A stretch of DNA of 64,000 nt from Candidatus Omnitrophota bacterium. Lineage in GTDB: Bacteria; Omnitrophota; Omnitrophia; Omnitrophales; Aquincolibacteriaceae. The DNA lies in contig JAUYMS010000027.1 in assembly GCA_030698625.1 (NCBI GenBank), positions 103,781 through 167,780 on the forward strand, given 5' to 3'. Positions 4,261 through 48,099 of this stretch are shown piece by piece (position 1 is the first letter of the stretch; each line of letters opens with the position of its first letter). Below the pieces are notes generated by a model that did not search any database, was not told where the DNA came from, and saw only the letters and a list, made by a program, of their open reading frames with translations. A program made the translations under genes and the position numbers.

Positions 4261-7200
4261 TTACGCCATCGTCGAGATGAGTTTGGAGAGTTCGAATTCG
4301 TAGGCAATTTCCAGGGCCAAGTGGGTAATTTCCAGCGACTGCCTCGTAACCCGGACCGTTCCCTGCATTTGCGCCACCAGTTCCTCAAGGAGTTCAGCTT
4401 TAAGACGCTCATGCCTGTCTTTCAGGGCGAGCAGTGAGGTCATAAAAAGCGCGATAGGCATGCCCGACTCCACGCTCACCTGCGAGAGTAACAAGCGATT
4501 GCTATATTGACCCGATAGCTGCTCCTCAGCAACACCCAAAACCATGGCTAGCCCATGATCCCGCAAATAACTTTCCAGTAAAAACTGAGCTGGCTCAGAA
4601 TCGGCTTCAATGATCTTGGCCACACCGGAGGCCTCCAGCGCCTTGGCAAAGGCTACCCAACGTTTGCGCTCATCGGCGGTAAGCAGAACGCGAATATCGC
4701 CAGTCACTTGTAAGGGATGCGCCGCTCTAAGATCGCGAACCATCTCGACATATTGGCGCAATTCACTACGCGCCTTGACGGAATCCGGCATGCGTACGGC
4801 AAACGCGAAATTGAGTTTGTTCTGCGCGTCAGCTGCAAGATGCGACCTCAGCGCTTCTACGATACGTGATATACCAGCATCAATGAAGCTTCGATGTTCT
4901 CCGTCATAATCAGCATGATCCTGGCGAATCTGCCTTTCGGCGCGAAGCAGGGAAACGATTCCGCCGTCGGAACGGGCAAGCAACCAGAGATTCACGTATC
5001 GCGGCTCGCCCATCGCGGCATAAGCAGCCTTCTCAAAACTGTCTAAGCCGCCTGCAACCAAACCCGCGAGACGTCCTGCCAGATCCACTGGCAAGTCGGC
5101 ACGAGCCGCCAGAGCACCCAATACATCATGAGCCACCTCTCGCAGTTCGGAGCGATGGCGGTTGTCGCGCCCACCGCGACGCCGGCCGCGACCGAGGCGT
5201 TCTTCAATCTGTTTTTCTATTTCGCGGTCTTCGGTTATAAATTTTGCGAACTTTCCTACTGTATAACGAACCCACTCGAGGATCTCAGGGTTCCTTCGCG
5301 CTGAGCCAAAGGTCTCACGGTCCCAAATCCAAATCTCATAATCCTTCGGACGGCCCGTTTTGACATTGCGGCGTTTCCAGCCGTCGATCTTGCGCGCGAG
5401 GAAGCCCAACACCCCTGTTTTCTTCTCGTCGACCACCCATCTCTTCTCCTGACGTTTCCATACATTGGAACGGACCCAAGAATGAATCACCGCCTTATAT
5501 TCGTGACCGATGGAAGAATCGACGGTGGTAACGGTAAAGACGCCTTCGTCAAGCGCTTCGGTGGTTACGAATCTTTCACCGAGCTTCAGGTAGCGGCGCA
5601 AGTCCTGTGCCGCACGCACGTTGCGCCACTTGCGCAAGGACTGAATCTGTTCACCGACCCGGTCGCGCCACACATATTGGTAAAGCGCCTCTGAGCGCAG
5701 CGCGGTCTCGATCTGAGCAATCATGTCATCGTCGAGCTTCGCCTCTCCGTCGATGACCTGCTGTGTCCACTCATGGATCTTAGCCAATTCGTAAAGCGTT
5801 TCGGTGACGATCGCAATCTGGCGGCGGTACGGCGTCACCACTGCGATGTCTTTGGCCTCAAGCTTTTCGTAAAGGAATCGCCACTCGCCTTTATCGCCTT
5901 TCACATAGCGTTTCACTTTTCCGTTCATCAGCTCGTTGACCCAGTGGACCACACGGTTGGCCTCGACAAAATTACCGCCGGTAAACTCCCTACGATCACC
6001 GCGCGGAGCCGCTTTCGTCTCTTCCGGAGCACGGCCGTTGGTGTTATCTTCGATCACCACCCCCGGATCGTCACGTCCCGGAACGAGCTTGCCGTTATAG
6101 AAGTAGTTATTCACATCCACGATCCTATAGCCGGATCTGCGCTGAATATCGAAGAAGTGGAAGCTCGGTCTCGTAAGCTTGAAGATCTCGTCTTGAGGAT
6201 CACCCTCAAAATAGATCTCCAGTGCCCGCTCCAGGAGCGAGATGCGGAAATTGTCGACACGCTTTTGCGCGAAGACTCCTTCGCGGACATTCCGCCGCAA
6301 CGTAACCCGGCCGAAGTCGGCCTTGATCTCTTTAAAATCGGGCCCCAGTTCGCGCAGCGCCTTGTCGATATCGCCCTCGTTGTCGCCATCACTGATCCCA
6401 TAAGCCGGAAGCTGATTGTGGTCACCCACGAGCACCACCATTTCCAGATTGGGCAGATTATCCATCAATTGCAGGGCCTCGGCGAGTGTGGCGCGACTCC
6501 CTTCGTCGATAATCAGGATGCGCACCTCGTCGAGCAAAATCGGGTGGCTCAAAAGATCATGATCCTGTAGAGCGCCGTTAACTGTTCCGACTAGGACAAA
6601 CCCCTTGCCGCCCTTCTTGTCGGGAGGCGTCGCCGCCGCGGTCCGCTGGCGGTCCTTACTCGCCTGCACCGTGGCGCTCAGCTCTTTGAGCTTTTCGGCC
6701 TTCTTTTCCCAGTTGGCGCGAATTTCCGGATTCTCGATCGCCTGGTCACTGTTACCGATGCGCACGAAGGCAACCTCTTTGGGCAAACGTTCGATGGCAT
6801 TGTCCAAAGCTTGATTCTGCTGCGCTGCCACCAGCACATTTTGATTGCTATCGTAGAGCATCTTTACAAGCAGTGAGATGACATGGGTCTTTCCCGTTCC
6901 GCCCGGTCCTTGCACATAAACCACGGGGATTTCAGTATTGAGGAGTTCCACCACGGCCTCGCGCTGCGGCGGATCCAGCTCGTGATCCATCTCTTTTTCA
7001 AGAAGTTCGAGCCAGGCGCGGTTACGATCATTCTGCCGTCTCTTTTCTTCTGCGCCGGCAGCGCTCGGGATGTCGACACGAATTCCCAGGGCCCGGTCCA
7101 CGACCGTCTTTCCAGTCGTCGCAAGCGGGCCCGCATTTCCATCAATCTCAATGACGGACCGGGATGATTCAATAAGTTTCCGAATCATCCCGCGCAGCGT

Positions 7201-10200
7201 TTTGGCCTGCCGCTCCCAACCGTCATTGCGCATACGCGTCATAATGCCGGCACGGCCCATCCGCTCAAGCTTATTGACAAGCTCGTCGCGGCCCTCATGC
7301 GTCTTCGGAAGCTCAAAGACAACTTTTTTCGGCTCTACCGTCTTGACCCGGAACATGAGCGGCAGTTCTTCATCGTCGGTCGGATGACGGAAAGTGAAAC
7401 TATCGCCCGGGAGAATCACTTCTTTTAAATTAGCGGCCACAAGCTGATCCACCAGAAAACCGGTTACCGTAAACGTTGTGCGGTCTACGGTGAGGCGGTC
7501 AAACGGGAATTCGAATTCTACAGGGAGGTCTTTCGCACGGCGGCGCCGATGCTCATTGTCGTCGCGAAGCCTCTGAGCTTCGGCCATCGTTCTCACAATA
7601 AAATAGTCATCGATCATTTTCGGCAGCCACAAGCTTGCTACGGCCTGCGAAATAATCTCCTGCGCTTTCTTGAGGACGGCCTGCGACGGCCCGTTGTGGA
7701 CCGACAGTTCAATGACAAGCCGAGCCATCTGAATCGCTTCCTCGACAAGCACCTCATGCTGGCGCTCCTGCCGTTCATCGGCAGAACCAAGGTCGACAAG
7801 AATCCTCTGCTGACTCTGATTCAGCTGGAAAGCGTTTTCATCAGGTAAATTCGAAACAGCCTCGACGGCCCCATCAAAGGCTGCCTTGGCCTTCGTGAGC
7901 AGGAGGTTGAAGGTCCCTTCGCTTTCTTCCGGATAGGAGACCAGATGCACCGCAGCGCGGTAGGTTTCGCGAAGGTCGCCGTTGACTTCGATGACGGCAC
8001 GCAGTCTTCGGGCATTGCGTTCATGCTCGGCAATTTCGTCTGCCAGGTCTTTGATTTCGTCCTGAGCACGGGCCACACTTACGGCCCACGCATCTTCGAG
8101 GTCGCCGATTGCTTTGTCATACAGCCTGCGCGCGGCACGGAAGCGCTTAGTGCTGAGATTCCCTTTCACCTGACTCATGAGGTGTTGATAGGTCTTAATG
8201 CTGGTAATAGCGGCGCTCACTTTCTTGTCTTCACCGAATTTCAGATTTTTCTCCAGAACCTCAATCGAGCCTGTAATGGATTCGCGTTTGCCGGACGCGA
8301 TACGAATCGCGGTTCCCCGGATGAGATTGCTATAGAACTTATATCTCTGGGCATTAGGATCCCCGGGATTTAGTTCTTCGAGCTCTTTGGCCAGCTGGGC
8401 GATAGTCTCGTACTCATTCGGTGAGAGGGAGTCCCCGTATCCCTTGCGGATGCGTTGGAAGAGGTCTGCGGCTTGCGCGATTTTTGCTTTGAGCGCATTC
8501 AGCCGACCGCGTACTTCATCAAATTCTTTCGCCTTCGCTCCCTCGATACCGGCCCTCACGGAATTTTCGGCCCCTTTATAATCACCGGCGACGAGCAAGC
8601 GTTTTGCATCCTCGAGAAAATCCACCGGCCGCACCTTGCTCTGCAATGTCGGCAAAATTTCTTTCTGGATGCGCCGGCTAGCCTGGCCGCTTAAGCCCCG
8701 TTCAATCCTCTGCGCCAAGTTATAAACGGTGGCTGCGTGTTCCCGGTCGATGTTGTCTGCCAGCCACTTAAGCAAGATGTAGCTGGCATCGCCCTTCCAC
8801 TCTCCTTCGTTCTTCAGAAAATCTTCGAAATAGGCCGTAAGCCGTTGGCGGGTTAGCTCCGGGGCCATGAGTTCCAAGCGATATAGGATTTCTTTCAACT
8901 GTGCGCCGGTAAGCCTCTCGAACCCGGGGCCGGTCAAAAGATCCAAGTGACTTTCGATCAGGAGATTCTGAAAATCTTCGGGAATCGTCAGAAAGACTCG
9001 GGCAATATTTTTATTCGTAAGAAAGTTATTTGCCTTCGCCTGCTTCTTTTTCCCTTTCGTTTCCTGCGGCAGTGTCTTTTTCAGTTCCGCGCGGCCTTCA
9101 TCGAAGCTGCCTTGTGACCAATACACTATCGTAAAGGCCGCCTCGACAGAAAAATTGGAATCGATCTCGAGCTCGGAAAAGCGTTCGCGCGCGCGTGTTA
9201 AGGTCTTGAGCGCCTCTGCCGGGTTACCGGCGCTTAAGGCTGCGACGGCGCGGTGGAATTCGGCATTCGCATGCATCGCCGCCTTCCGCTTCTCATCCCC
9301 TTCATGTCCGGCGGCTGTCTGATAGATACCGAGCAACTCCTGCGCTTTCGCTCGGGCACGCTCCGGCAGATCCCCCTCGCCTTCGGCAAAGCTCGCTAAA
9401 ATTTCCATAAGCCCGGCGCCCCGCAGGACAACCATATCGCTTACTCCTTCGTAATCAAAATCAAGCATCTCGGTCGTTGCCTTTAGAAACGTCTCATCAT
9501 CCCTGACGGCCCAGGCAATTGTGGCTATGGACAACAGAAAGAATTTATTGCTCTGATAAAATTCGTCGCCCATGGCAAGCCTCAAGAACTTCGAGATTGT
9601 CCCTCTTAAGCCTGCCAGCTCCGAATCCCCCAGGTGAAGCGTATGCAGCCAGCTCCCGCTATTGAAGGCCTCAAACATCATTTCGTAGAGCTCGGCATTA
9701 GCCGCATGCCCTTCTTCGCGATGGCGCTCGAGGTACGCGAGGCCCCGGCCGAAGCGCTGGCCCCACAACTGAATCTCACTTTTCGCGTCCTCAATCTTTC
9801 CGTCACGCAGTTTTCCGTACACAGTCCGGTTCAAATGCTGCAAGGATGATGCCGCCAATACGTCCCCTTGATCCTGACCCATCCGGGGCATATGCGTCGC
9901 CACCGCTCTGAGGATCTTCTTATTGACCTCCAACTCGATGTCTTCTTCGTCGGCAATTGCCGCGAGTTCGGCCAAATTTTGGTAGAAGAAGAATATCAAC
10001 AGGCTCTCTTCGTGTTCGGAGAGCAACTGACGATACTGTTTGATGCCGCCTCTGAGGAAGCTCGTGAGGTTCCTCCGGAATGTTTGATAACGCTCACCCC
10101 CTTCGCCTTTTAGATATCTGCTCTCGTTGATAAGGAGTTTCAAGAAACGCGTATAAAAGGCAATGTCTAGAATGGCATTGATGCCTGTCCGTTGGCTAAA

Positions 10201-13200
10201 ACGTTCCCGGATGCGTTCAAAGAGGCCAAACATGGCCCCCGGATCGTAACCATGCTTCATAAGATGCGCATCGGCAAGGTCGGCAAACTTTTCAACATAC
10301 CGCGTCTTTTGATCGTCGGCAACATGACCGCTATTTGTTCCCCGGCCTGCGATCATGAAATAATTCAGAAAGCCGTCAATATCATCGGCCGTCTTATCGA
10401 TACTGGCTGTCAAGTAGTCCGCGGTTTGCTCCGCAAAAACGGCATCGCGCCCCTTGTTATCAAGGGTCAAGCGTTCAACCAGTTTGCGGGCTAAGATCGG
10501 ACTCCGAACGTTTAGGGCATTGAGTACGGCATGTATGTTTTCCCAATGGTTTGAAGGCCGCTGTCCCACTCTGTATAATCCTTCGACAATCGCAAGCGTG
10601 GCGCTCGTGATATAGCCGCCGGTTCTGATTTCACGTTCCAGAAGATACGTAACCATTTCCTCCATAGCCCCGGCATCGTCCGGCCATTGCTTGAAATCAT
10701 CGAAGATCTCACGGGAAAGTCTTGCGGCAGCTCCGAGCTGATGCATCGGTCGGCTTAGAAAAACGCTTTTGCGCGCGCCGGGAAGAACCTGCAATGTCCT
10801 TGCTTGGTAGAGCAATTTAAAGAAGAGCTTGAGGGCCTCCTTCGCTTCGTCGGGACGGCCCCTTAGAAGATGTACGGTCGCGTGGTCATACGGCAGAACC
10901 AGCCTCATTTCGCCCAATGCTTTCGGAGCCAGATCGCGATATATCCGGTCGGCCGTTTCAAGGTCCCCCGAGTAAAAAGCGGCGACAGCTTCGAAGTAAT
11001 CGTGCCAAGGCTCGAAGTATGCGTCCGCGTAGGCGCCCGTCGCCTTGCGGGCCTCGATCATTTTATGACCCGCCGCCACTGCCTGACGAAACGCCGCCTG
11101 CGCGCCTTCCATGTCCGGTTCCGTATCATCGGCCGGCGGATTGTTCAGAATAAACCCGCGCAGGAAGAGCAAGTGCGTCAGAAAGGATTGGGAAATGGCA
11201 TGGTTCGGATCCAGATCCAGCGCGAGACGGATAGATTCAAGCGCCTGATCAATGTGTGTGATGTCTTCCTTATAGAGCATATGAAAACCGGCAAGCTCGG
11301 AGAGCACATCCACCCTCATGCTCTGCACCTGGTCTTCGGGAATCCCCTCTTTGCCGACCTCATCTAAGAGCATTAAGGCCTTTTCCAGGGCAAGGAAGGC
11401 CATGGCGATTTCAGTCGGCTTGAGCGGGTCGAAGTTTAAGCGCAACTGCTCGGCCAACCGGGCGGCCATCTCGATCTGTTCCCAATTCGTCATATCTGTT
11501 TTCGACTGCACATAAACTTCCAGGAGCATACGCTCGGAATCGAGCATGTCTGCCGCAACCAGCAGATTGCTCAGGCGCCGGTAATTCCCGTAATCCAAGT
11601 CGCTGGAGTAGTGATAATCCACAACGGTTGGCAGGATCTGCTCTATGGTCTCACGGGGCGGCATGCCATCCCCATAAGAATTCATAAGAACAAAGGCCGC
11701 TGACTGACGCATAACAACCATCAGATCCATACCGGTTTTGAGATGTCTCAATTCTTGCGTGATCTGGTCTTCGCGATCTTGCAGCTTTCTTTCCTTTCTT
11801 ACGGATCCCGTCTTCGTCCTCGCGGTAACTTCATACTCCTCCTGCAGACGGATCATTTTGCGTGCCGCCGCCCCTCTTGCCTTATCAGTCTTATTCAGAA
11901 GGATATGGGCAAGCTCGATCGGATCCCCCTGCGCAGTCTTGAGACGTTCCACCTCGGCATCACTCTCACCCAAGATCTCTTCGACAACCACGCCGGCACG
12001 CATGAAATCTGTTTCCGCCCGCTCGCCGTGCTGTTCGCCAAGCTCTGTGCGCAATTCCGACCGCGCAGCGGGTTCAATCTCCAGAATCTGAAAATGCCAG
12101 CCGTCGATAACCGGAATACCGATGCCCCAGCCTTCGCGGTGCAGGGCCTCGCCCTTAAGGGTATCCGGTTCCGTCAAATATTTCTTCTGCAGATGATCAT
12201 AGACGCGGTAACGGGCATCTCCCCTCTCGATTCCGAGGAATCCCACATCGGTGAGGCGCACCCAGACTTTCTTATCGGGTTCGGTATGGTGCCGCGATCC
12301 GAATGAAATGGGTACAATCAGGCGGCGGCCTTCGTGGGTTCGCGCAAACACAATGACGGTCTCACGGCTGACTCGATGAAATTCAATTTCACCGTGGTCA
12401 AAAAGATCGCGGAGCGCCGTATCGCTGATAACATCATTTAGGCGGGCAAAGACTTCCTGATTCCAGTCTTTCATATAACGCAGCAGGTCGGGCGAGGCGA
12501 TGGCAATAAGGGCCATGACGGGCGGTATCCCAACCGGTCGCTTATCTTGATCGCTAAAGTGCTCCCGGGCTGCATTCGGTTTTAGCTCCGCCACGGTTTT
12601 CAGAACATTCTTGAGTTCCTCTGGTTTTTCCCGCAGGGTCTTGATTTCATTGATCAGCAACAGAGCCGGCGCCTGGTTGCCTCTGACAAATTCCCCGCGA
12701 ATCGCCGCACTTAGATAACGAATTAGTTTTTCTTCTTTGCGCTCGACAAAGCGCAATGCCTGAACCGTACGAACGTTCACCGGCAACCCCTGGGCAAAAA
12801 GATCCCCCACCGTATGCCGTCCATATTTGGCTTTCGTGTTCGCGTTCTCAACGTCAAAAACAGACGCCCTATCCCCAACGGCGTCCTCACCGAGCAGGGT
12901 GGTAAAACCGCGCACACCGTAAACCTCGGTCCCGCCGAGCGCCTCTTCGGTGGACTCATTGACCGCGACGAGAACCTTCTCGCCGTTAACGTGAACGGTA
13001 TAGGCCTTTACGTTCAACGTTGTCGCGTCGAGGAGCTCTCCATTTTTATGGAGGTACCGAATGAGATACTCCCGCAAACGAGCATCTTGGAAAAGCGTCG
13101 ATATTTCCTTGCCCTCCTTGATGGAACTCTCGAGTATGCTCCAAGAGAGGCGGATGGCAAGCAGGTTTATCACCTCAAAGGCATGCAGGTTTAATTCGAC

Positions 13201-16200
13201 TTTTTTGTTAAGCGACTTCTCAGATGCCGATGCGGTAGCCAGGCGTTTGATCTCATCTTTTACGTCCTTGAGACTCGGGTCATCGTCTTTGAGAAGATAA
13301 TTCAGGATGAAGTGGAAAATGTCACCTTCAGGGTGTAATTCGGGATTACTGGTATGATAGCTCATCGCCCACAGCGCCTCGACGCCGCGCATACGCAGTC
13401 GGCGAAAGCTGTCGAGAAAGCCCAGCAGGCCCGGGACGCCTTTTTCTACGAGAATCGTATCTTTCTTAGCGAGATCGGGACGGCGCGTCCAGCCAAAACC
13501 GTCGTCCTTGGCGAGGGTTAGAAGATTCGTCGCGGTAGTGCTCGGAATTTTCAGATTCGAGAAAATTTTATTCTGCTCATTGCGCCGGCTTATGGCTTCC
13601 TGCCAGAGAAAGGCGTGGGCCCGCGTCTGTCCGCGTTCGATATCGACTTTCCAGGATGATGCCACGGCCTGATACTGTGCTTCGCGCCGGCTAACAGGAT
13701 CGCTGTAGCGTGTCTTTAGGCCCTTGAGTGCGGCACCCAGGCTCGCGGCCATGGGCCGCCGTCCGCCGCCATCGACCCCGCTCATTTCAGAATTCGAATA
13801 TTCCACCAGGAACCCATTAGTGATTTCCCACACCCCGCTCTCCAGGTTCTGAACGAGTTCATCATGTGAAACATTTTCGGCGAAGATATCGATCTCACGG
13901 CCTGATGACTTCTCGATAATCGTAAAGAGTTCCGGCATGGCACCGCCCCAGACACCGATCAGTTGAGCGAAATTCGCCAAACCTTTCATCATGCTCGTGG
14001 CCGATGCCTCGAGAAACTCATCGGAGAGCATCACCACACCGGCCATGGCCTGAAAAATAACCGGCGCGGCGAATATACTGTAATTCTCCACCGTCGCAAT
14101 ACGGTGCTCGAGACCCAATTCCCGAATTAACTCTTTGATGCGATCGAATTTCCACTGGGCTCCGGAATCAAAGACGCGCCCGCCGATGACGACCCGAGCC
14201 GAGTCACGTTTAAATGCCGCAAGCGCTTCGGGGTCCCGCGCGAGCGATTCCAGGAGCTCGATCCACTTTTCCGGCCCCTTATACGCCACTTGGCGGCGAA
14301 TGTTCGAGACGATCGGGTCTTCAATAAGGATATCCCTGAGAACACCCACGTCTCCTGATAAATTCGCCCATTTCGTTTCGTCTAGAAGGGCGGCGTGAAT
14401 CGCTCCCATGAATGACTGAATCAGCATCGCTCCGTCTTCCGCTTTGTGCCCGGTGCGTTTCGTATATTCAGCGATGGCGTCCTCAAACCATAACGAATTT
14501 CCCTGCTCCACGGCCATCCACAGCAGAAATTGTCCGACATAACCCGCATTGACGTATTCGCTTCGCCTCTGAAATTCATCGCGAAGCGCTGCAGATGTGT
14601 TTAAAATCTTAAAAAATTCGCGGTCGCCGTCACTATCCACCATGCCAAGGCTCGTTTTGAATTGCTCAATTAGTTCACGCTTTTCGGGCGATTGCCACTG
14701 GTCGAGGAGCACGCCGTTGGTGCTGCGGACACCGTTGCTGTTGTACCCGGTCAGCTTGTGCATATGTCCTGAAAAGATTCCGTCATTTCGAAGCACGGGT
14801 GTGTGCTCATAGAGGCCGACACCGGTGATCATATCGGAGTACATGGCGACCGCATCGGTGATGTTGATCTTGTCGCCGTTCACGATATACGGTCTCATCC
14901 ATTCAGCAAACCCCAACATCTCATAGGAAGAGGCATTAGGACTATAGAGACCGGGGCGAAAAACGGTATGGTTAATATGGTGATGCATGGCGTTGGGGAA
15001 CATCGGAGTCGGCATGCTGGCGAACACCTCGTTATCCACAAAGAGGATATCCTGTTGGACAAGCTTTCGGCTCTGCAATTCCTTAAGCAGCATCTGGCTC
15101 GCCTGCGCATAGGCTCCCATGTGAACATCCCGCCACAGAGTCGTACCCGTCTCGTCAGCATCAGGATAGACCTCATCGAAAACACTGACCGTCCGCCCGT
15201 CCCCATTCACAAAAAAGATGTCAAGATAATAGCTGGGAGTTTTCCCGTACTTGGTTTGCGTCTCGTAGACATGAACCGTCAGTTCGCGGTCGACGACACT
15301 TCGCGCCTTCCCGCGGGCCTTATCTCGAAAGTCATCACCGATTTTCAGTTTCATCTTAAATTCGATGCCCGTATCATCCAGGACTTCCTTCAGGTAATCT
15401 CCGAGATTCTTCGCGCCCGCGAGCACTTCGAGCGGCAAAGCACCGTTTAGGCCCTCCGATCCCCGCTCCCCTCGGACAATTCCCTTGATCTTATTATTGT
15501 AAAGAGGGTGAATGGCAATGATGTCGGTACCGTTCTTGCGCCAGCCGTCGATCAGATCCGGCATAAGGGCCCCCAAACCGCCGGTGAAGTTGAGCTGTGA
15601 GACGAAATTTGCGATCTTTTTGCCGAAGCGGTTAGCAAGTTTTGCCAAAATATCACGGTGCAGGCCCGCTTCGAACTGCCGCGTAACCACGGTTACATTC
15701 TGAACATCTGGCGTGTTCTCGCTAACCCATGTGTGCCGCAGCTCAGACCGGTGTGTTTCCGCCGGAGTCTCCTCAGAGCCGACAACTTGATCAAGATGAT
15801 TGAGAGCAAAATCAATAGTCGGCAAATACCATACCGGTTCGCCTCTCCCGTTTAACGCATTGAGTGCCGCTTGAAAGGAATATCGCGCGAATACGATTGC
15901 CTGCTTTTCGGCTTGCGATCTGGCCTTAAACCGCAACTTGGGTCTAAACTCAACGAAGGCCTCCATCCCTACTTTACGTGCCGCCCAAGCAATACCCCTT
16001 TCCAGCCAACCGCCTGAAGCTCCACGCATGGGCGTAACAATCGCCCATATCGCTTGGTAATGCTCTTTGAGAACTTTGGTGCCGGCGGGAACCTGCATAT
16101 GACTATCGGCAATGAATGCTCTGAAGGTTTTCGTGACGCCCATCTCCCGCATGATTTCCTTAACCGAGCGCAAATCAAAAGTGCCCGTCATAAGCAAAAC

Positions 16201-19200
16201 GCCCCACAGCTGCTTACGCAAGAAGTCACGCAGCTCATGATCACGCGTCGTGATGATGTGGCGGCCGGCATAATCGAGGATTTCAATTTTCCCCTTTTTC
16301 AGACGATACTTCCAGCCGTCGAGGACTAATGTGGGATTGACGGCTTCAATGTATCGTTCGATCAGCTCCGAAGTAACTTGCGGCGCCTTAACACCTGCGG
16401 CGAGATCACGATTTTTCGGCAAATCAAGAATAGAGGTGGCGCGGCTAAGCGTGTCGAAAGTTGCATATCGGCGAAGAAAGCTTTGTGCTTTGCCTAAGTC
16501 GATCTCTGCGAAGGAGAGAGATACCTTGATCTCTACGGCTTCGTCTACTCGATTCAACTGCTCCGGTCTTGCTTGCGTCTGCGCAAATGGCTTGAAGAGT
16601 TCTTCCTCAGGCTCCAAAGCGACAAAAATATAAGCACGCTTAAAAGTGCCGGCGGGAAGCGCTTCCCCGGCGGCCGACACGGCACTTATTCTCCGGGAGA
16701 CCGCGCCCGGCAAATCCTGACGGATCAGCTGAAAGCGATCCTTGGTCATGGGTTCAAGGCCCATCCCCAACGTCTCTCTTTGTTGCCGAAGAGTCTCTGA
16801 AGGCGCACCGCCTCTGAATCCAACCAACGCATGCGGCAGAAACTCATTGGCCGCGAGTTCTGCCGGGGTCGCTGTCCAAATACCCACTTCATCCAAATTG
16901 TCTTGTTCGCTAAGGATTTCGTCTTCTGCTACGGCCATGACTTCTTGGATCGTGCCTTCACCAAAAGTAACCATCTGGGCCAGGTTCAGTTTTTCACGGG
17001 CGGCCTTCTGCTCTTCCTCCCGCCTGGAAGCGAGTGCCTCATTTCTGCGCGCGTCATCAGCCTTCCGTTCTTGCTCTGCGACATACTCCGCAATCGCGCT
17101 CATTTGGACGCCGAGCAGATCTTCCCGGCCCCGGATTCGCCTCTGCCGCTCTTGGATTTCCTTAAGAACGCTGACGCGTTCGGCTTCGCTGAAATGCCGT
17201 TCGTCGACCCAGGCCGAGCCGTCGGGGGCGATTTCATGGATCTCGACAATCAATGCCCGCAGTTCGTCATCGGAAATTCCGTAGGGCTGGTTAATCAGGA
17301 CCAAGTGCCCGTCCTCGATGGCGCTTACCAGAGACGCGACTTTATCGCTGTCCGTCCAGGCGCTCGGATCCTCGGTCATATCTCTAACATTCTGACGAAT
17401 ATTCTGAACGGTTTTCCCCGAACGGAATTTCAAATGAATCTCACTCACTCGGGCATTCGTGCTGTAGGATTCCGGTTGCGCCAAGATCACAACCATGACC
17501 GTTCCACCGTTGCGCAGCTCGACATCTTTGACTTTGTCTTCTAGAAAGTAGTCCGCTATTTGCCCTACCAGGTCTTCTTCCGGCTGAACGCGCTCGAATC
17601 CCAGACTTTGGAGTGCACTACCCTGTTCCTCGGTCGCGGGAATCACGCGCAGCGTAAAGCTTCCTTCAGCCGGTGCTTCCATTTCCTTCAATTGATTGAT
17701 CACGTCCTTATCACCGGCCATCACGCGCTCCGTGATCTCCGGGGTCTGTGACTTCAACTTCGCTGCTGTCTCATTCGGAACGAGGATGACGGGGCGCACT
17801 TCGGAGCTGTCATAGGCGCTGCGTCCCAATTCATAGTGCGCCGCGGAGTTCAATTCCGAGAACTGGTTTATAAGAAGGGGGTACGCATCGATGTTAGACT
17901 CCGGGGTCACTCCAGAGTAGACGCCCGGGTCCTTACCCTCGCTGTCATTACCGCGCGTCAGGAAAAAGCCCGCGTTTCTATCGAGAAGGCTCAGCACCTG
18001 CTGAAAGTGAAACGAATCCCCAATGCTCGTCTCGTTGATCAAGACTTGGTAGCCCTGCTTGATTTCTTCGGGGTAATCCCGGTCAGCATCAAAACCAAAG
18101 TAAGCAATAACCGTCCTCTCGATACCGTTATGCCGGAAAGTCGCGACGTATCTCTGCTGCTTGCGCTCCTGTCTCCTTCTCGCAAATTCAATTTCAGTTT
18201 CAGGATCGACCACAGATCCGAGCTGCTCTGTAACCTGCGCCTTGAAGTCACCAAAACTCAGAGGTTCCCGGTGCGTACCGATAAGGGTTTCAAAATCCGT
18301 CTTCATCAGGGTCCCGAGGATATCTAATTTCCCGGCTTCATCCCCGGCGCCGAGCCCCATGGAGTAAACAACCGGTTTATCAACGAGTGAGGTAATCAGC
18401 CGGGCCGTGTTTCGTGCCAAGGTCAGCTTCTTGCGCGCCACCTTTTCGCCCTGCCCGAACCCGTCGAAGAATTTCAGGACATGTTCTCTTGATGCCTTGA
18501 TGCCTGTGACAGGGAGTTCCAGATCCAGATCGATATCGCTACCCGGCAGTTCACTGCCGAGATCCCGGAACGGAATGTAGTGCGCGGCGCTTTCTTTCGC
18601 GCGGTTATAGGACTCTGCCGCTCTAAGCTCTGAACGCTTTAGATCCGTTTTTTCCAGAACGAGATATCGAAGGCTCCCGTCCGCTTTGCGCAGCGGATCG
18701 CCGCTTGCATCCTTTGGCACGAAGAGGAAACGCAGTACTTTTACATTGGTCACCTCGTCCAGCTTGGCCATTCCCGTCGTAAGGTCTGTCAGATCTTCGT
18801 CGGCAAGATAAACTAATAAGTCATTTTGCTTTGCGCCTACCGTGCGGAAGACCTCGGCAAATACCGCGGCGCGGCGGGCATCGCCGTATCCGGTTATTGC
18901 TTGGTTTATCGTAATTAGCGGCCGGTATCTTACAAAGCTCAGGTCGCCCTGGATCTCCAACCCCGACGGCACTGAAATCGGCTTTGAGAGGATGTCCTCC
19001 AAGGTTCGGCCTTCGTCCAACTGGTCAAACACGGCAATAAAATAATTCAGCATATTCCTTTCCTTCCGCACAATCTCGGCAAGGGTATCGCGATACAATC
19101 TGCGGTCATCCTTGTTGCCGATGACCCGCGCCAAGACCTCTTCGAGGTCTTCGAGCACGTCAGGGCTATACTCGTGATAATGCGGGTTCTGGATTTCGAG

Positions 19201-22200: not shown

Positions 22201-25200
22201 CTCCAATACGAGAATCAAGCGCTCGAAGTCCTCGGCAAGCAGCGTCGCATCCGCGCCCTCAAGACGTTTCTTAAGAAAGTCTATGACGGCTTCATTATTC
22301 CCGAGATCCAGCAGCGACTTTCCTGCATCCGGGATACCGGTGGCACCGAAATCGCGGGCGGGAATAAACCAACTGCGGCCGTCATCGACCGCGCCAAGCA
22401 GAATCTGCACATTGACGTTCGGGAGTGACTTCAAAACCTCCGTGAACTGGCTGGCCCCGCGGCCGCCGCGGAGAACCACGATGTTTAGGGGATCGGCAGG
22501 ACTGTGCTGCCGGAGGAAGGCCTCATAATCAAATACGGCATTAAAAATGGTCTCGACCTGCTTGGCATCAAGTCCGAGCGGCGGCGGGTTGCCGCGCAGC
22601 AGATCGAGTCTCGCTTGAAGCAATCGCTTAACTTCGTCCGGGTTCTTCAAAACAGCGTTGTCCTTAATTGTTTGATACAGAAAATCGGGACTTTCGGTCA
22701 GCCCACTCAACGCGGCGTCTCCGACTCGCGCGGTCACCCCCTCGCCTGCGAGCTCCTGAACCAGGCTTGCAATATCTCTGAGCGTTTGCGCCTGCTGCTC
22801 CAGAATCCCCGGCGGGGCATAGAGCTTCGTATAGATCGCGGTTTCCTCACTGGCTCCCAGTCGATCAATTCTCATGACCGGGTCCTCAGACCGAAAGGCA
22901 TTGCGCTCATGCAGGCGAAATTGACCGCCGGTTGAAATGATAATGCCGCCCGGCTTCAAGTAAGACATGAGGTTCTGTGCAATGACACGCGCCTGCCGGT
23001 CTGAAATAGATTTGGGATGAGCCACATCAGAAATAAAGATGATATCCATTTTTTCATCTTCGTTTTGTAATTCCGGTAACGGTTTCTTAAGATCCCAGAG
23101 ATAGCCGTTCACATTGGCTGTGATACCCTTGGTCTTCAGGTTCTGATCCATGGTGCGGAAGTTCTTTGGAAGCGCGTCAACAAGATGAAAATCGCCCACG
23201 GGATACTCGGAAAATTCTTCGACCTCCGCACCGAAGATTCCTGGGCCTGCGATCATGACGCGCGCACCCTCGAGATCGGTCTTGAATGATAAATTCGGGC
23301 CAACGCCTTGATGCGCACGCGCATAGTCCATAAAAGCCGAGAAGTCCCGGTTAATGAAGGTCCATCCCAACCCGTCGGAAGTGGCCGAAATGCCGTCACG
23401 CTCATCGTCGGCGGTGTCTTCGGGCTGAAGATCTAGAAGCGCTTGATCGACCTTCCGCATGCGAATCACCTCTAAATCTGAAAACGGCGCGTCTTCCGTT
23501 TGTATTTCAGAGCGCCGGGCTAGCGGGATAAAGTGTTCCCGGTAAACGGCGTCGGCAGCCTGACGGACGCTCTCGCGGAACTGATTAAAGTCTCTTAGTT
23601 GATCATTGATATACTTCGCCCACTCCAGCTTGTCGGCGGTGGCCGTTCCCATAAGTTTTTCACTCAGCAACAATGCCATTTCGCGGCCGATGACGATATC
23701 CGCACTTTCTCCCGGCACTTCCCCATCTGTTCCCAGAGCCTTGGCAATTTTCAACAAAAGCATAAAGGGCGCATTGTGCTGCTTCCGCAGGGCATTCAGC
23801 GAGGCCTCAACCTCAAGGATCATCTCGTTAGCAATCGCTTGCTTTTCTTCGGTTTTCGTGGCCGAGTCTGCGAGCCGCGTTCTGAGAGTCGAATCATCCT
23901 GCAGCAGCCGGCTTACCTGCTCTCTGCCGAAATCGGGTTTTCCGGCCACAAAGACACTTCCTGTGACGTCGCGCATAAAACGCTTCGCGTCAACATGACT
24001 TCTTTCCTCGAGCATCATGTCCTCGAGCAATACTTTCTTCAAATCCTTCTGATCGCCCTCTCCAAAAGATTCAACCCGCACTCGCATCGTGACATAGTCC
24101 AGTTTGTCCGGTTGTTGACTGAAGGGAAGCATGCGGAATCCCGGACGCCCGGAGTCTCGCTTCATCTTCTGATAGTGGGCGATTATCTCCGCCAGGAACT
24201 CCACTCCGTCTTCGTACAAAGTAATGAAGTCTTCGGTTGCCGATGCGACAACCACTTGATCGACCTTGGTTTTCAGCCTCACAAGGTAAACCGGGACCTC
24301 ATGGCCGGCCTCAGTTGTTACTTGGCGCGTTTCTGCGTCGTTGAAGCGGAGAATGCGGTAAGGTTCCTCGGTGGTGCCCGCTTGTGCAACGATTAGCCCA
24401 TGCGGAAAAAACGTCCTCTGAAAATGCGGGGCAATGTTTGCGGCTTCGACAGCGCCCATCGTGCTGTCCGGACTGATGTCGCTGATATCCGAGAATTTTA
24501 GACCCGGTTCCAAGACACCCAGCGTCTCATCAAACCACGTTATGAATTCCCCTGCCGGCAACTCGCCTGTCTTGAGTCTTTCAGCAAGTGGATCCTGGGT
24601 CGGGAGAAAGACTTCGGAAATCCATTTTTCGATATCGAACTGCACGTGAGAAGGGTCCAGAAGCCGGGCTTCTTTAGCGCCCTGAAGGTATTCGGTGATC
24701 GGGGCAATATGCTGCCGTGAAAGACGCGCCAACCTAAAGACATCTGCGACAGCCCCCTGATTAATATCGCCCGCTCCGTCCAAGAGGGCGATGGCTCTAC
24801 CGCGCTGCGCCTCGTTAACGCGTTTGTTAATCTTTCTGCCCAACCCCGCGATGAGCCCATCCAGAGCTTCTCGTTCTGTTCTCAGCTCCGAGCGGGCACC
24901 TGTGTCCGGCGCCGGGCGCATGAGATCGATTGCGCTAAAAGACGGCTTCGGGGGAAAAACCACTCCGGGGTTGAAGCTCAGCCTGTGCTGACCCATGAAT
25001 CTCTGGAGCCTGTCCGACATCTCTTGACGACCCTCCTGCGCAGCGGGATCCACCTGTCCGTAAAGCGCAAAGATCAACTCGTCCAAGAAATCTTTGGTGG
25101 CTTGATCCGGTGTGAGCACCACGCCTAAGTACTCGCGTTCTATAAACCGGAGGCCCGCCTCGTCTCTCATCTCAATCCCATAGACACTGCGGACGATGCG

Positions 25201-37200: not shown

Positions 37201-38631
37201 CCTTCCCCTCACCGCCATGAGGTTTAGAAGATTTTTCAAGAAGACATCATCGCGCTCTCGGGCAATGGCATAAAAACGAATCGCCGGAATCTGGTCTCGG
37301 TTTATGGACTTGATGAGGTTATTCATATCTGCCGCAAGTTCGCCGATGCGATCCTCGCCGGCCTTCTCACTCCCCGCAGAGTTCATGCCCTCGAACTCCC
37401 GCCACTCGCCAAAACTGAGTTCCAGAGCTGCGAGTTTTCTTAAAACTCGCAGACGGCCGTTTAGCGCATCGACGGCACGGGCGGCCGGAGACACCATCAT
37501 GTTTTCCTTAAGCGTGCCGATCAGGGCCTCCACTTCCTCAAAAAAGGCCGCCCCCTGCATTTGTTGCAGCTGTTCATGCCGCGCAATCATTCCCGTAAGC
37601 TCCTGCGAGATTTCCAGCGGCAGGCCCTTGCCCTCGGCAAGGCGAACAAGATAATGGGCGAATGCTTCCGGGGCCAGGTGCTCCGTGCGGTAGCTTTGTA
37701 TTTTTCCCTGAAACTGGCTTGTTTCTGCATGGGTCAATAGCGGCTGCATAAGAGTAATAAGCGCTTGGACTTCTTCTTGGATCCTAGTGCGGGCCGGCCA
37801 TTCTTCCTTGCCGATCTCAGCTAGCATCGCCGCCACCCGCCCGTAATCTTCCCCGATGTTGATTATTGTCTGCTTTGCGCTTTCACCTAATTCTCTGAGA
37901 AGATCGAGGAGGTCCTTTTCGCCCTCGTGAAAATCTCGAACGGCTTGGTCCAACACCAAGAGTTTTGGGGAGTAAAATTCTGCTTTTAGGGCAGCGAGCC
38001 TTTCATCGAAAGCGTTGAGGTTTTTATCCAGCGCGGGTTTCGCTTTAAGGGCTTTTAGGAATTCTGCTATTCCACTTTCATAGAGCTCCTGATCTTCGAC
38101 ACCGTAGTAGTCAAGACTCGCCCCTAATACCGCGTGCGCCGCCGCACCGGACAATTCTCCGCTGCGGATATACGCTTCGAAAACCTCACGCAGAATATCT
38201 TTGTCGGGATAAGCCTGAAAAAGCGTGGGATCGAGTTTTCCGGCGGCACCCTCCAAGCCGATTAAGTCGATGCCGTATTCGGCGTGAAAATAGCCCACGA
38301 GTTCGAAAAGGGATTGTTGAGCGCTCGGAACGGCGTGCGCATCGCGTATGAGCACGACAAGGTTCCCGTTTTTCTCGTCGCTTGCCCGGTAATGTTCTTC
38401 AGCAGTGCCCAACTCCGCAGGGAGACTCAAGCCGGCCGACAGATCAAAAGACCCGTCGACCGTTTCACTATGCGAGCGAGGCGTAGATTGCTTGAGTTCT
38501 CCCTGTGTGGGTTGGGCATAAAGAGTGCCGGTGGGCGATATGACATCGAGCGTGGTGAAACAGATAAGCAGACAAAGGGCGGTTGCCCTTCGTCCCAGAT
38601 AGAGTTTTCGTCTTTGTGAAATCGCTCGCAT
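4261..38631 (-). CDS. giant multi-domain secreted/membrane protein, 11,456 aa (34,371-bp single ORF)
   Basis: One uninterrupted reading frame from the ATG at 38629-38631 to the stop at 4261-4263. The N-terminus looks like a signal peptide ([41 protein letters not shown]). Recognisable domain signatures exist along its length (see domain sub-features). The exact pentapeptide RSELR occurs 16 times. A weak SD-like AAAAGGG lies upstream. Confidence 0.9.
5470..6960 (-). other. giant protein: Superfamily-1 (Upf1/DNA2-like, AAA_11/AAA_12-type) helicase domain
   Basis: Walker [14 protein letters not shown] (about 6880-6930), motif [10 protein letters not shown], motif [14 protein letters not shown] (about 6400-6440), and Upf1-like motif [17 protein letters not shown] (about 5490-5545). 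All were back-translated. Confidence 0.8.
7300..12050 (-). other. giant protein: long predominantly alpha-helical, TPR-like repeat region (boundaries approximate)
   Basis: Recurrent about 34-aa helical-hairpin-like segments rich in A/L/E/K/R, e.g. [35 protein letters not shown] and [36 protein letters not shown]. One was back-translated from 9205-9290. Confidence 0.4.
14300..15740 (-). other. giant protein: glycogen/alpha-glucan phosphorylase (GT35)-like domain (tentative)
   Basis: [12 protein letters not shown] resembles the GGLG(x)LAGD phosphorylase-family motif. [12 protein letters not shown] resembles the conserved (A)YTNHT(V/L)LPEALE block. Back-translated from 14960-15050 and 15590-15760. 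Confidence 0.35.
20550..20840 (-). other. giant protein: Nudix hydrolase-like domain (degenerate Nudix box)
   Basis: [24 protein letters not shown] partially fits G-x5-E-x7-RE-U-x-EE-x-G-U; the Glu-Glu pair is replaced. It is preceded by [12 protein letters not shown]. Back-translated from 20690-20830. Confidence 0.4.
21330..22480 (-). other. giant protein: CofD/YvcK (UPF0052, gluconeogenesis factor / 2-phospho-L-lactate transferase) family-like domain
   Basis: N-terminal [21 protein letters not shown] parallels the IVVIGGGTGLSTLLRGLK pattern. C-terminal [41 protein letters not shown] parallels the DAIVIGPGSLYTSIIPNLLV-GI-EAL...K-Y-CN pattern. Back-translated from 22440-22530 and 21421-21520. 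Confidence 0.55.
22900..23340 (-). other. giant protein: class I SAM-dependent methyltransferase-like Rossmann domain
   Basis: [14 protein letters not shown] (glycine-rich motif I-like) and [11 protein letters not shown] (post-motif II/III pattern). Back-translated from 23250-23345. Confidence 0.45.
26745..29130 (-). repeat. giant gene internal tandem module, copy 2 (about 2.4 kb)
   Basis: RSELR, then a TM helix ([18 protein letters not shown]), a Pro-rich linker ([12 protein letters not shown]...), and the same about 700-aa domain ([17 protein letters not shown]...[13 protein letters not shown]...). The parallel shadow ORFs 26969..27175 and 29360..29566 encode near-identical peptides. Confidence 0.8.
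29131..31535 (-). repeat. giant gene internal tandem module, copy 1 (about 2.4 kb)
   Basis: RSELR, then a TM helix ([16 protein letters not shown]), a Pro/Ala/Val-rich linker, and about 700 aa of conserved domain of unknown function ([17 protein letters not shown]...[13 protein letters not shown]...). It is colinear with copy 2 at roughly 65-70% aa identity by eye. Confidence 0.8.
32000..32700 (-). other. giant protein: GlnD/GlnE-type (DUF294-like) nucleotidyltransferase-like domain
   Basis: [20 protein letters not shown] matches the GS-x-AR-x-E-x-SDIDL pol-beta-like NTase signature. Back-translated from 32420-32530. Confidence 0.55.
32950..33600 (-). other. giant protein: histidine phosphatase (PGAM-like) superfamily-like domain
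   Basis: N-terminal [13 protein letters not shown] (RHG-type catalytic motif) and downstream NILISSHG. Both were back-translated from 33590-33640 and 33100-33170. Confidence 0.5.
34540..35010 (-). other. giant protein: GNAT N-acetyltransferase-like domain
   Basis: [28 protein letters not shown] matches GNAT motif A (V-x-P-x-Y-R-G-x-G-hGxxh). Verified by back-translation of 34640-34790. Confidence 0.55.
35250..35650 (-). other. giant protein: CheY-like receiver-like domain (tentative)
   Basis: [11 protein letters not shown] ... [11 protein letters not shown] ... TIIIFNS ... APAK pattern resembles receiver beta1 (acidic pair), phospho-Asp strand, beta4 Thr/Ser and the beta5 Lys. The first acidic pair is degenerate (E-N-G-E-D). 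Confidence 0.35.
38509..38631 (-). other. giant protein: predicted N-terminal signal peptide
   Basis: Basic n-region (RRKLYLGRR), hydrophobic core ([13 protein letters not shown]), then a small-residue cleavage-like region (LYAQP). Confidence 0.55.
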
Positions 38632-48091: not shown

Positions 48092-48099
48092 ATCAAACC

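Follow-up and report, generated by a model that had tools for sequence, protein, structure and literature searches.

A 34-kb Omnitrophota gene with a recurrent RSExR junction motif: a candidate exported polyprotein

Giant multi-enzyme proteins with a signal peptide and transmembrane (TM) helices are known in Omnitrophota, both as the 'Archaeovorin' type (West-Roberts et al. 2023, bioRxiv 10.1101/2023.11.21.568195) and as the 'multi-enzyme metabolic cluster' class of a study that covers 5,761 proteins of at least 10 kaa (Nielsen & Lui 2026, bioRxiv 10.64898/2026.06.07.730766). The Omnitrophota giants described so far include proteins with NUDIX, methyltransferase, GNAT, receiver and glucan-enzyme domains (10.1101/2023.11.21.568195; 10.64898/2026.06.07.730766). 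A divergent SecA_DEAD helicase domain has been reported for most giant genes, and C39, S8 or M50 peptidase domains are present in other Omnitrophota giants. Cleavage of the giants has been suspected, but no cleavage points were known, and this gap blocked segment-wise analysis (West-Roberts et al., 10.1101/2023.11.21.568195). Viral polyproteins, such as those of picornavirus 3C and potyvirus NIa, offer a comparison for the gene described here: many proteins in one ORF, a short conserved peptide at each junction, junctions that match the borders of autonomous units and an in-chain protease, for which our gene has a candidate. They differ from it in that ours is a chromosomal gene by oriC, has metabolic and regulatory cassettes and comes as several paralogues per genome, with cleavage only proposed. 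MARTX toxins are likewise huge exported chains of unrelated enzyme cassettes, cut in their linkers by a built-in protease; they carry RTX repeats, are exported by type I secretion and have a C80 cysteine protease with cleavage after Leu. In our gene product, from which these MARTX features are absent, the putative protease sits at the N-terminus and its site would be one fixed pentapeptide.

The gene lies in a 64-kb stretch of DNA, hereafter the window, where it occupies positions 4261-38631 of the minus strand (the strand of all features below) and encodes 11,456 aa plus a stop from an ATG start. It belongs to the known class of Omnitrophota giant multi-enzyme proteins, so the view of the initial annotation that it is not a described protein family does not hold; the link that the annotation drew between giant genes and cell-surface or predatory functions is a fair one for such genes. 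With this class it shares the phylum (by synteny), a length above 10 kaa, a signal peptide with scattered TM helices, a repertoire of NUDIX, methyltransferase, GNAT, receiver, glucan-metabolism enzyme and TPR domains, a small number of annotated domains and poor sequence conservation. Its length passes the 10-kaa threshold of Nielsen & Lui but remains below the >30 kaa set of West-Roberts et al. It differs from the described giants in that no SecA_DEAD, C39, S8, HEAT or dockerin matches were found in the giant protein; in place of SecA there are only helicase matches to AAA_11/AAA_12, of SF1B type. It differs further in having a conserved head, a conserved tail, an RSExR junction motif and an absence of Cys, all unmentioned in those papers; the initial annotation had likewise missed the head and tail, the family-wide reach of RSExR and the cysteine-free mature protein. 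Our literature searches found nothing that links Omnitrophota with polyproteins, TIKI or a linker motif, and a search on RSELR returned unrelated software names only.

The 34-kb ORF is confirmed as a genuine gene of an Omnitrophota bacterium. Within 4261-38631 the terminal stop is the only one in its own frame, the other two having 425 and 601, and the gene's GC content per codon position (0.62/0.39/0.62) follows a pattern that indicates coding throughout. This bears out the earlier reading of one gene, which covers 53.7% of the window (first given as about 54%). A separately made Logan assembly agrees with it at 100% identity for 5,095 bp across the gene start, at the 5' end. The order CorA-RlmN-orf223-YchF-[gene]-SAT-ResB is common to the window and six Omnitrophota MAGs, with YchF 69-75% identical, and this conserved synteny places the giant gene in an Omnitrophota genome. 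The gene sits ~19 kb from oriC, and its positional orthologue in UBA2337, at the YchF...SAT-ResB locus, has only 2,606 aa. The duplicated module noted earlier is real (aa 2416-3170 against 3221-3966, 60-79% aa identity), and its copies, only ~70% identical as DNA and sharing no word longer than 24 nt, present no assembly hazard.

Relatives were gathered by a homologue search with the first 1,365 aa as query. Their common feature is a conserved and unannotated head, which in the giant protein spans aa ~64-640 (36712-38442), roughly the first 640 residues, and which recurs in 7,315 protein clusters (50% identity) and at 481 loci in GTDB species genomes, nearly all titled Candidatus Omnitrophota. 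Its invariant residues are D97-x-H99, E127, E179, R460 and GGFH488; H99, E127, R460 and H488 are present in 151 of 151 head sequences and D97 in 149. The AF2 model of the head (pLDDT 76, with the core above 90) predicts an alpha/beta domain with a parallel beta-sheet core, TIKI/EreA/ChaN/TraB-like, and puts D97-x-H99, E127 (+28) and H488 at the C-terminal ends of predicted strands. The spacing of 28 residues from H to E is that of RRSP (H3902/E3930) and Bcr135 (H85/E113) (PMC6254334). RRSP is a MARTX effector with a TIKI fold (PMC6254334), and the similarity of the head to it is only at the superfamily-fold level. As modelled, the head would have a TIKI/EreA/TraB-type hydrolase fold with a His/Glu catalytic-type set. 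It differs from the TIKI/EreA/ChaN/TraB-PrgY superfamily in that its core is split by a ~290-aa helical insert and that it has no sequence-profile match: TraB_PrgY_gumN, Erythro_esteras and Cofac_haem_bdg gave no Pfam match up to E = 5 and none in NCBIfam, while a PDB profile search with the head gave no TIKI/TraB/Ere match and returned only HEAT repeats, which two relatives have in their tails. Foldseek of the whole head model against PDB gave nothing significant. At the opposite end of the protein is a conserved orphan tail of 297 aa (aa 11160-11456; 4264-5154), opened by RSELR site 15 and closed by ...ISTMA. Among the proteins compared here it was found in 19 others, only at the extreme C-terminus (with 0-4 residues after it), and it has no Pfam or PDB relative.

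The pentapeptide RSELR occurs in exactly 16 copies in the giant protein, where composition predicts ~0.03. Synonymous codons are used from site to site, among them AGT (Ser) and AGA (Arg); selection therefore acts at the level of the peptide rather than its DNA, and a DNA-level recombination signal is rejected for this reason. The motif is also a property of the family: in 150 head-bearing representatives, each from a separate 50%-identity cluster, RSELR is the commonest 5-mer, and RSE[LIVMFA]R is found 514 times, against 4.3 in shuffles. It is present in 140 of these representatives (~94%), the first site lies at a median of aa 674, always directly after the head, and inter-site distances have a median of 338 aa. 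Per 1000 aa, head-bearing ORFs have 0.73 motifs and their neighbours at the same loci 0.017, a 43-fold difference. The variant of the motif is common to the paralogues within a genome and differs among genomes, and a distant head-bearing branch (25-27% identity) is mostly without it. The flanks are unconserved except for small residues at -1 and +1 and an enrichment of Pro/Ser/Ala; residues 640-674 have a pLDDT below 35 in the AF2 model, and are thus linker-like. In the model, where this stretch has low confidence, the first RSELR is not docked into the head. A mutual-information scan of head columns against motif variant returned only high-entropy columns, none near catalytic residues, and is uninformative. 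A TM helix follows the motif at just 2.4x chance, which rules out a role as a general signal-anchor prefix.

Along the giant protein, these sites delimit segments of diverse enzymatic character. Site 1 (aa 674; 36598-36612) coincides with the median first-site position in relatives. Site 2 (aa 981; 35677-35691) opens a 149-aa segment (aa 981-1129) with a receiver-like domain (35344-35562), which when scanned alone reaches 28.6 bits for cREC_REC (cut-off 27) and remains below the cut-off for Response_reg (26.4 vs 30.2). Site 3 (aa 1130; 35230-35244) opens the segment aa 1130-1365, with a GNAT acetyltransferase-like domain (34675-34974; 22.6 bits vs a cut-off of 20.7, segment scanned alone), and is followed by site 4 (aa 1366; 34522-34536). 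Site 5 (aa 1637; 33709-33723) aligns with RAEVR of the homologue L046 at the start of a shared cassette with a histidine phosphatase (His_Phos_1, E 2e-12; 32998-33507), and the segment after site 6 (aa 1975; 32695-32709) has a weak match to NTP_transf_2 (E 0.012). The two copies of an orphan cassette come next. Copy 1 (aa 2366-3165; 29137-31536) opens with site 7, after which come basic residues, the TM helix of aa 2376-96 and a linker rich in Pro, and copy 2 (aa 3166-3961; 26749-29136) opens with site 8 and then a TM helix (aa 3177-98), so that what was duplicated is precisely the stretch from one RSELR to the next (800 vs 796 aa). For this cassette a word-index homology search was empty, BLAST found a 55-57% relative inside P0058, and the AlphaFold2 model of the paralogues has a pLDDT of 34.

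Beyond site 9 (aa 3962; 26734-26748) and site 10 (aa 4580; 24880-24894), a weak methyltransferase-like match (Methyltransf_25, E 0.025; 22945-23223) stands upstream of a CofD/YvcK-like domain (CofD, 1.6e-12; 21301-22482) and a NUDIX domain of YfcD / IPP-isomerase-like type (1.6e-9; 20497-20805). Site 11 (aa 6104; 20308-20322) starts a cassette common to L032 and P0015, and site 12 (aa 6666; 18622-18636) aligns with RSEVR of L032, where the shared cassette ends. Sites 13 and 14 bound a GT35 (alpha-glucan phosphorylase)-like cassette, aa 7628-8856 (12064-15750), with the PLP-Lys motif EASATSMMK at 13981-14016; site 14 (aa 8857; 12049-12063) aligns with RSEFR in L058 and RSETR in P0161. This segment alone has no Pfam match up to E = 1, and its assignment as GT35 phosphorylase-like is supported at the level of sequence profiles: 7/10 homologues are pre-annotated PF00343, and around the PLP-Lys motif the profile matches 47 PDB phosphorylase sequences, the best with E 5e-7. 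Weak TPR repeats (9097-10887) precede an SF1B (Upf1/DNA2-like) helicase core (5788-6978; AAA_11/AAA_12, E 5e-20 / 3e-10), and site 16 (aa 11288; 4756-4770) falls within the conserved tail itself, at a place where the motif is missing from relatives. The domain calls made at the outset thus stand in part, with SF1 helicase, CofD, NUDIX and His_Phos_1 above the Pfam cut-off, GNAT and the receiver (cREC_REC) narrowly so, the nucleotidyltransferase and methyltransferase as weak matches only, and GT35 recognised via homologues.

Blocks of homology start or stop precisely at the motif, the sequence on its other side being unrelated, and their positions differ among positional orthologues. The segment aa 7628-8856 corresponds to aa 978-2311 of L058 and begins at aa 1614 in L030 and aa 1466 in L015; aa 6104-6665 corresponds to aa 1093-1685 of L032; and aa 1637-1974 begins at aa 2794 of L046. 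Cassettes have been shuffled between positional orthologues, and the early description of the segments as RSELR-delimited is accurate. Stand-alone homologues of the GT35-like cassette (P0163/4, P0166, P0167 and P0168) have their own signal peptides at the start, and their homology begins at aa 7633-7634, just past the RSELR of aa 7628-7632. A short conserved motif is thus found at the junctions of autonomous protein units, as in polyproteins.

The protein begins with a classical Sec-type signal peptide (aa 1-41; 38509-38631), in which six K/R precede a 13-residue hydrophobic core and then LYA|QP, and Sec signal peptides are found at all N-termini of the family. The signal peptide holds the only two Cys of the protein (aa 20 and 24); none occurs in the 11,416 aa of the mature protein, compared with 0.84% Cys in 16 other ORFs of the window. 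By Kyte-Doolittle hydropathy, the sole basis for these calls, five credible TM anchors are predicted at aa 1374-96 (34444-34512, after RSELR site 4), 1580-1600 (33832-33894), 2376-96, 3177-98 and 4214-36 (25924-25992, with a strongly basic N-flank). Two further hydrophobic peaks lie within globular folds, at 1826 in the His-phosphatase and at 8183-8205, just before the GT35 PLP-Lys motif. The signal-peptide-like N-terminus and the several internal anchors first noted were thus both recovered here. If the five helices alternated between stop-transfer and re-insertion, about half of the sites would be cytoplasmic and beyond the reach of an exported head. In three consecutive helices (2376, 3177 and 4214) the N-terminal flank is the more basic one, and an uncut chain cannot give all three the orientation that this predicts.

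We suggest that the gene encodes a polyprotein precursor that would be exported or membrane-inserted via its N-terminal Sec signal peptide. The precursor would have three parts, a ~600-aa head, ~14 autonomous cassettes and the 297-aa tail, joined by the invariant RSELR; the cassettes would comprise the receiver, GNAT, His-phosphatase, NTase-like, two signal-anchored orphan copies, MTase-CofD-Nudix, GT35-like and TPR-SF1B helicase units and further orphans. Most likely RSExR would be the inter-cassette processing site, so that the precursor would yield roughly 16-17 products, some soluble and others each retained by a TM anchor of its own. As protease the head itself is the simplest candidate; it could work in cis, or in trans between paralogues, of which a genome has several. 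For us, the odds are even that the protein is exported as a polyprotein and processed at RSExR, with its own head as a possible protease. The products may act at or in a host or prey cell. A cut after the final Arg would resemble a tryptic cut, and would thus be invisible in standard tryptic data.

Several other explanations bear on the same observations. That the ORF is an artefact, either because the duplicated module caused a chimeric assembly or because the open stretch does not represent a single gene, can practically be dismissed: the window is probably metagenome-derived and does contain an internal duplication, but the single open frame, the divergence of the two copies, the identical 5' end in an independent assembly, flanks on both sides common to orthologous loci and the presence of both family head and family tail in one gene all speak against it. 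It is highly improbable that the protein belongs to, and has the architecture of, one of the known families of secreted multi-effector toxins (MARTX, Rhs/YD or Tc-type). The logic is similar, in that a large exported protein bears several enzyme cassettes; the whole protein, however, has no RTX/haemolysin, C80, RHS/YD or Tc matches in Pfam and NCBIfam, its export signal is an N-terminal Sec peptide and not a C-terminal T1SS signal, and its likeness to RRSP stops at the fold. The segment-level searches once proposed for this purpose therefore revealed no such toxin, and MARTX/Rhs membership is rejected because the defining domains are absent.

It is somewhat unlikely, in our view, that the protein is an uncut multi-MDa scaffold threaded through the membrane, with RSExR as a non-proteolytic linker that docks, for example, a chaperone, a translocon component or a partner. 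[quoted passage not shown] A docking motif would nevertheless leave unexplained the exact ends of blocks and duplications, the signal peptide that takes the place of the motif in stand-alone homologues and the shared orientation of three TM helices, and the scaffold would put 67%-identical paralogous modules on opposite sides of the membrane. Cleavage of RSExR by a separate genome-encoded protease or sorting enzyme, with the head doing something else (an esterase, haem/ligand binding as in EreA and ChaN, or export), seems to us quite unlikely. Motif variants that are genome-specific and shared across paralogues are explained no worse by one factor acting in trans than by a head acting in cis; covariation between head and motif was not found; the distant branch keeps a head without the motif; many members of the TIKI superfamily are non-proteases (ChaN, Ere esterases, PMT); and other Omnitrophota giants possess C39, S8 and M50 peptidase domains. 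Set against this, neighbour clustering at 80 loci found no protease or secretion gene conserved beside head-bearing genes, only the YchF/RlmN/CorA synteny of positional orthologues, and there is no separate protease gene within the window. The enrichment of the motif in head-bearing ORFs, its unfailing first occurrence directly behind the head and the complete set of invariant catalytic-type residues in the head also count against it.

With the polyprotein reading in mind, a fixed pentapeptide at cassette boundaries would make the question of whether giants are cut or remain intact directly testable, with support from the motif in ~94% of sampled relatives, from stand-alone homologues with signal peptides and from a protease-type head within the chain. 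The RSExR boundaries would also provide rational cuts of giants into units for structure prediction and annotation, and our analysis defines two large unannotated domain families, the head and the tail. More broadly, and with slightly greater reserve than for this one gene, we propose that many Omnitrophota giants may be true polyproteins, Sec-targeted, cysteine-free, bracketed by head and tail and cut at a genome-tuned RSExR by the head, their cassettes being gained, lost, duplicated and shuffled between head and tail. If confirmed, this would be a rare polyprotein gene organisation in cellular life; if true across the family, it would mean that a cellular lineage makes wide use of a virus-like mode of expression, in which dozens of enzymes are made as one chain.

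The 34.4-kb reading frame at window positions 4261..38631 on the reverse strand is a single gene, as the initial annotation claimed: it opens with ATG and its 11,456-aa translation has a single terminal stop. Stops number 425 and 601 in the other two frames over the same 34.4 kb, and GC fractions at the three codon positions are 0.62/0.39/0.62; the ORF is therefore coding along its full length. The duplicated module noted earlier is likewise present, at aa 2416-3170 and 3221-3966 of the giant protein, with 60-79% identity. Since the two copies are ~70% identical as DNA, with a longest common word of 24 nt, they pose no risk to the assembly. Over 5,095 bp spanning the gene start, an independent Logan assembly (SRR13727534) matches at 100% identity.

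The right part of the window carries serS, gyrA, a histidine kinase gene, gyrB, dnaN and dnaA on the reverse strand, followed by yidC and mnmG on the forward strand. The chromosomal origin region (55951-63165) comprises dnaN and dnaA (-) and yidC and mnmG/gidA (+) around a 946-bp gap (58597-59542) that holds the cumulative GC-skew minimum, near 58 kb. Gene order and skew thus place the giant gene ~19 kb from oriC, in the same direction as replication. Searching GTDB species genomes with the protein's N-terminal domain yielded 481 loci, nearly all titled Candidatus Omnitrophota and often several per genome. In six of the 481, the genes run CorA-RlmN-orf223-YchF-[big gene] as they do in the window; one of these, L058, also has the downstream SAT and ResB. 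YchF identity between the window and the syntenic loci is 69-75%, and this, together with the locus distribution and common gene order, indicates that the window derives from an Omnitrophota genome.

Several neighbors merit description. The 223-aa ORF between rlmN and ychF, on the opposite strand (40049-40720, +), has no Pfam match and holds the same position in five Omnitrophota MAG loci at 45-54% identity, besides the window's own Logan contig. The histidine kinase (51855-53186, -), between gyrB and gyrA, has a GAF-HisKA-HATPase architecture. A TadA-like deaminase gene (MafB19-deam / dCMP_cyt_deam_1; 46003-46637, -) lies immediately downstream of tRNA-Arg(ACG), on which TadA usually acts, and three tRNA-Ser genes and serS cluster near it (45190-49353). 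An FkbM-methyltransferase ORF (44420-45292, -) overlaps tRNA-Ser(GGA) at 45190-45279, and a hexapeptide/serine-acetyltransferase-like ORF (3537-4412, -), only 77% of which aligns to its L058 orthologue, extends over the final 152 nt of the giant gene; the true starts of both probably lie downstream of the mechanical calls.

The pentapeptide RSELR occurs exactly 16 times in the giant protein, where ~0.03 copies are expected from composition, and no relaxed variants occur elsewhere in the protein or in other frames of the window. The 16 15-nt sites use CGC, CGG, CGT, AGA and CGA for Arg, TCN and AGT for Ser, GAA and GAG for Glu and five Leu codons, a variety which implies that selection acts on the peptide. 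These sites delimit 17 segments, the shortest 128 aa and the longest 2,303 aa. With aa 1-674 as the query, an exhaustive phmmer search returned 7,315 cluster representatives at E<=1e-3, of which 1,123 reached E<=1e-30. In the best 150 of the 7,315, the conserved N-terminal domain, or head (aa ~64-640), matches at or near the N-terminus of proteins of up to ~8,000 aa; the commonest 5-mer is RSELR (227 copies), with RSEAR, RSEVR and RSEMR next among motif variants; and RSE[LIVMFA]R totals 514 copies, compared with 4.3 in shuffled sequences. Of these same 150, 140 contain the motif in the broad sense, its first site falls at a median of aa 674, as in the giant protein, and the inter-site median is 338 aa. 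Across 80 loci, motif density per 1000 aa is 0.73 in head-bearing ORFs and 0.017 in all other ORFs. The flanks are unconserved, except for small residues at -1/+1 and an upstream enrichment of Pro, Ser and Ala. Variants at positions 2 and 4 are homogeneous within one protein (0.45 vs 0.17 permuted) and common to paralogues of one genome, and differ between genomes, as with [RK]TE[LM]R in HK-STAS-OMNI-5 and RSE[TM]R in STB_104. A distant head branch (L063-L083, for example L066, L067, L070 and L074) has 25-27% identity and a length of ~3,900 aa, includes some MAGs labelled Elusimicrobia, Planctomycetia or UBP3, and has a higher Cys content (0.1-0.75%); we found no alternative recurrent motif there.

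When positional orthologues and further relatives are compared with the giant protein by BLAST, the motif marks where shared blocks start or stop; the sequence across it is unrelated, and the blocks occupy very different positions from protein to protein. Segment 7628-8856 corresponds to aa 978-2311 of L058, where RSEFR aligns to giant-protein 8857, to L030 from aa 1614, where RSEVR aligns to 7628, and to L015 from aa 1466, at RTELR. Segment 6104-6665 corresponds to L032 aa 1093-1685, with RAETR and RSEVR, one per end, and segment 1637-1974 to L046 from aa 2794, with RAEVR on both ends. Over the 150 best representatives, 11/47 block starts and 7/39 block ends fall within 10 aa of a motif site (~3% by chance). 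What was duplicated internally is precisely one stretch from RSELR to RSELR. The UBA2337 orthologue between YchF and SAT-ResB has only 2,606 aa, so the locus gains and loses whole cassettes. The most telling evidence comes from stand-alone proteins of 940-1,895 aa homologous to the GT35-like cassette, which have their own N-terminal Sec signal peptides and whose homology to the giant protein starts at aa 7633-7634, right behind RSELR 7628-7632. At locus L003 (GCA_016930235.1, JAFGHI010000041.1, 4592-20840), a 2,082-aa head-bearing ORF (P0009) is followed by a >4,900-aa ORF in another frame; the two overlap by 34 nt, and RSELR flanks their junction closely on each side, with 11 further sites downstream. 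Either a frameshift has interrupted one larger polyprotein gene, or the gene is split close to the edge of a cassette.

His_Phos_1 (aa 1709-1878), CofD (aa 5384-5777), NUDIX (aa 5943-6045) and an SF1B helicase core (AAA_11/AAA_12, aa 10552-10948) exceed their Pfam cut-offs. With segments scanned alone, cREC_REC (28.6 against 27 bits) and GNAT (22.6 against 20.7 bits) do so narrowly, Response_reg falls below cut-off, and NTP_transf_2 and Methyltransf_25 match weakly. NCBIfam and PDB sequence searches added only distant relatives, Nudix/IDI and Upf1/DNA2-like. The proposed GT35-like domain has no direct Pfam match, and the call is upheld by its homologues: 7/10 for segment 7628-8856 are pre-annotated PF00343, and the segment's profile matches 47 glycogen/alpha-glucan phosphorylase sequences in PDB at the PLP-lysine region, where the giant protein reads EASATSMMK. 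Several RSELR segments contain a single recognizable domain and are as long as an ordinary protein: 149 aa for the receiver, 236 aa for GNAT and 338 aa for the His-phosphatase. A TPR and SF1B-helicase cassette (window 5155-12063, aa 8857-11159) recurs just upstream of the C-terminal tail in long relatives (P0021 aa 5082-6984; P0031 aa 5151-7030), and the family may have a conserved helicase-tail arrangement at its C-terminal end.

At the N-terminus ([39 protein letters not shown], then QP), six basic residues precede a short hydrophobic core, which leads to an AxA-like site. This signal peptide contains the protein's only two Cys, leaving none in the mature 11,416 aa, while 16 other window ORFs have 0.84%; in relatives, Cys makes up 1.6% of the first 40 aa and 0.05% of the remainder. 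All complete N-termini of relatives resemble Sec signal peptides. Together with the signal peptides of the stand-alone GT35 homologues, these features suggest that most or all cassettes are exported from the cytoplasm, including enzyme types usually considered cytoplasmic. A Kyte-Doolittle scan finds five credible internal TM helices (aa 1374-96, 1580-1600, 2376-96, 3177-98 and 4214-36) and two more hydrophobic peaks inside globular folds. In the consecutive helices at 2376, 3177 and 4214 the N-flank is the more basic in 3/3, an orientation that an uncut chain cannot satisfy; such a chain would also place two paralogous modules of 67% identity on opposite membrane sides.

No Pfam or NCBIfam model covers the head. 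An AlphaFold2 model from 12 sequences has a mean pLDDT of 76 (core >90); in an alignment of 151 sequences H99, E127, R460 and H488 never vary, D97 and E179 hardly do, and the conserved residues lie at the C-terminal ends of predicted beta-strands. RRSP, a MARTX effector with a TIKI fold, has the 2His/2Glu set E3900/H3902/E3930/H4030, and Bcr135 has H85/E113 (PMC6254334); the head's acidic-x-His, Glu at +28 and distal His fit this pattern, as a putative equivalent of the set. Foldseek with the whole head model, dominated by a 290-aa helical insert, gave no match, and no sequence profile linked the head to the TIKI superfamily; our confidence in the predicted relationship is moderate. The tail, the last 297 aa from RSELR 11160, is conserved. 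A local HMM finds it in 20/171 proteins, at the extreme C-terminus in all 20 (0-4 residues after), ending in -MA in 16/20 and preceded by an RSExR-like motif in 18/20; no relatives were found in Pfam or PDB. Family C-termini keep the consensus [IV][AS]xMA-COOH (window 4264-4278, aa 11452-11456, and relatives P0014-P0144), which may act as a signal for recognition of the terminus. The full family architecture is thus signal peptide, head, cassettes and tail, and the presence of all four in the giant gene argues against truncation or chimerism.

The best-supported reading of these sequences is a polyprotein whose cassettes would be separated at RSExR, with a logic like that of MARTX toxins and viral polyproteins, although the giant protein belongs to neither. 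We consider RSExR a probable site of some form of processing. The built-in TIKI-type head would be the most economical protease candidate; we give even chances to the complete model, in which the head does the cutting. The distant head branch mostly lacks RSExR, one RSELR site lies inside the tail, and an exported head could not reach cytoplasmic junctions. Genome-specific motif variants fit a trans-acting cutting factor as well as they fit the head, and a mutual-information scan gave no covariation signal between head and motif variant, returning only high-entropy columns. P0003 (L002 7553-14692), a complete member of the family (2,379 aa, six RSELR sites), matches Peptidase_M50 (site-2 protease) weakly in the first of its cassettes, at aa 733-841, so some relatives may carry an additional protease.

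The suggestion that this protein falls outside any described family is not supported: giant ORFs are well documented in Omnitrophota, and the gene is a further case of that kind. ORFs >20 kb occur in many Omnitrophota genomes, with roles 'poorly understood' (PMC10066038); 'Archaeovorins' contain glycosyltransferase, methyltransferase and NUDIX domains, and missing cleavage-point information prevented their segment-wise analysis (West-Roberts et al., bioRxiv 10.1101/2023.11.21.568195); and a catalogue of 916 proteins of at least 10 kaa, 39% with signal peptide and TM helices, includes a 'multi-enzyme metabolic cluster' class (Nielsen & Lui, bioRxiv 10.64898/2026.06.07.730766). The open-access papers and bioRxiv preprints searched on Omnitrophota giants make no mention of the motif, head, tail or Cys absence, and an earlier description elsewhere is possible. 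Enzymes released from such a polyprotein might act in interaction with hosts or prey, in extracellular phosphorolysis of glucan or in some other role.
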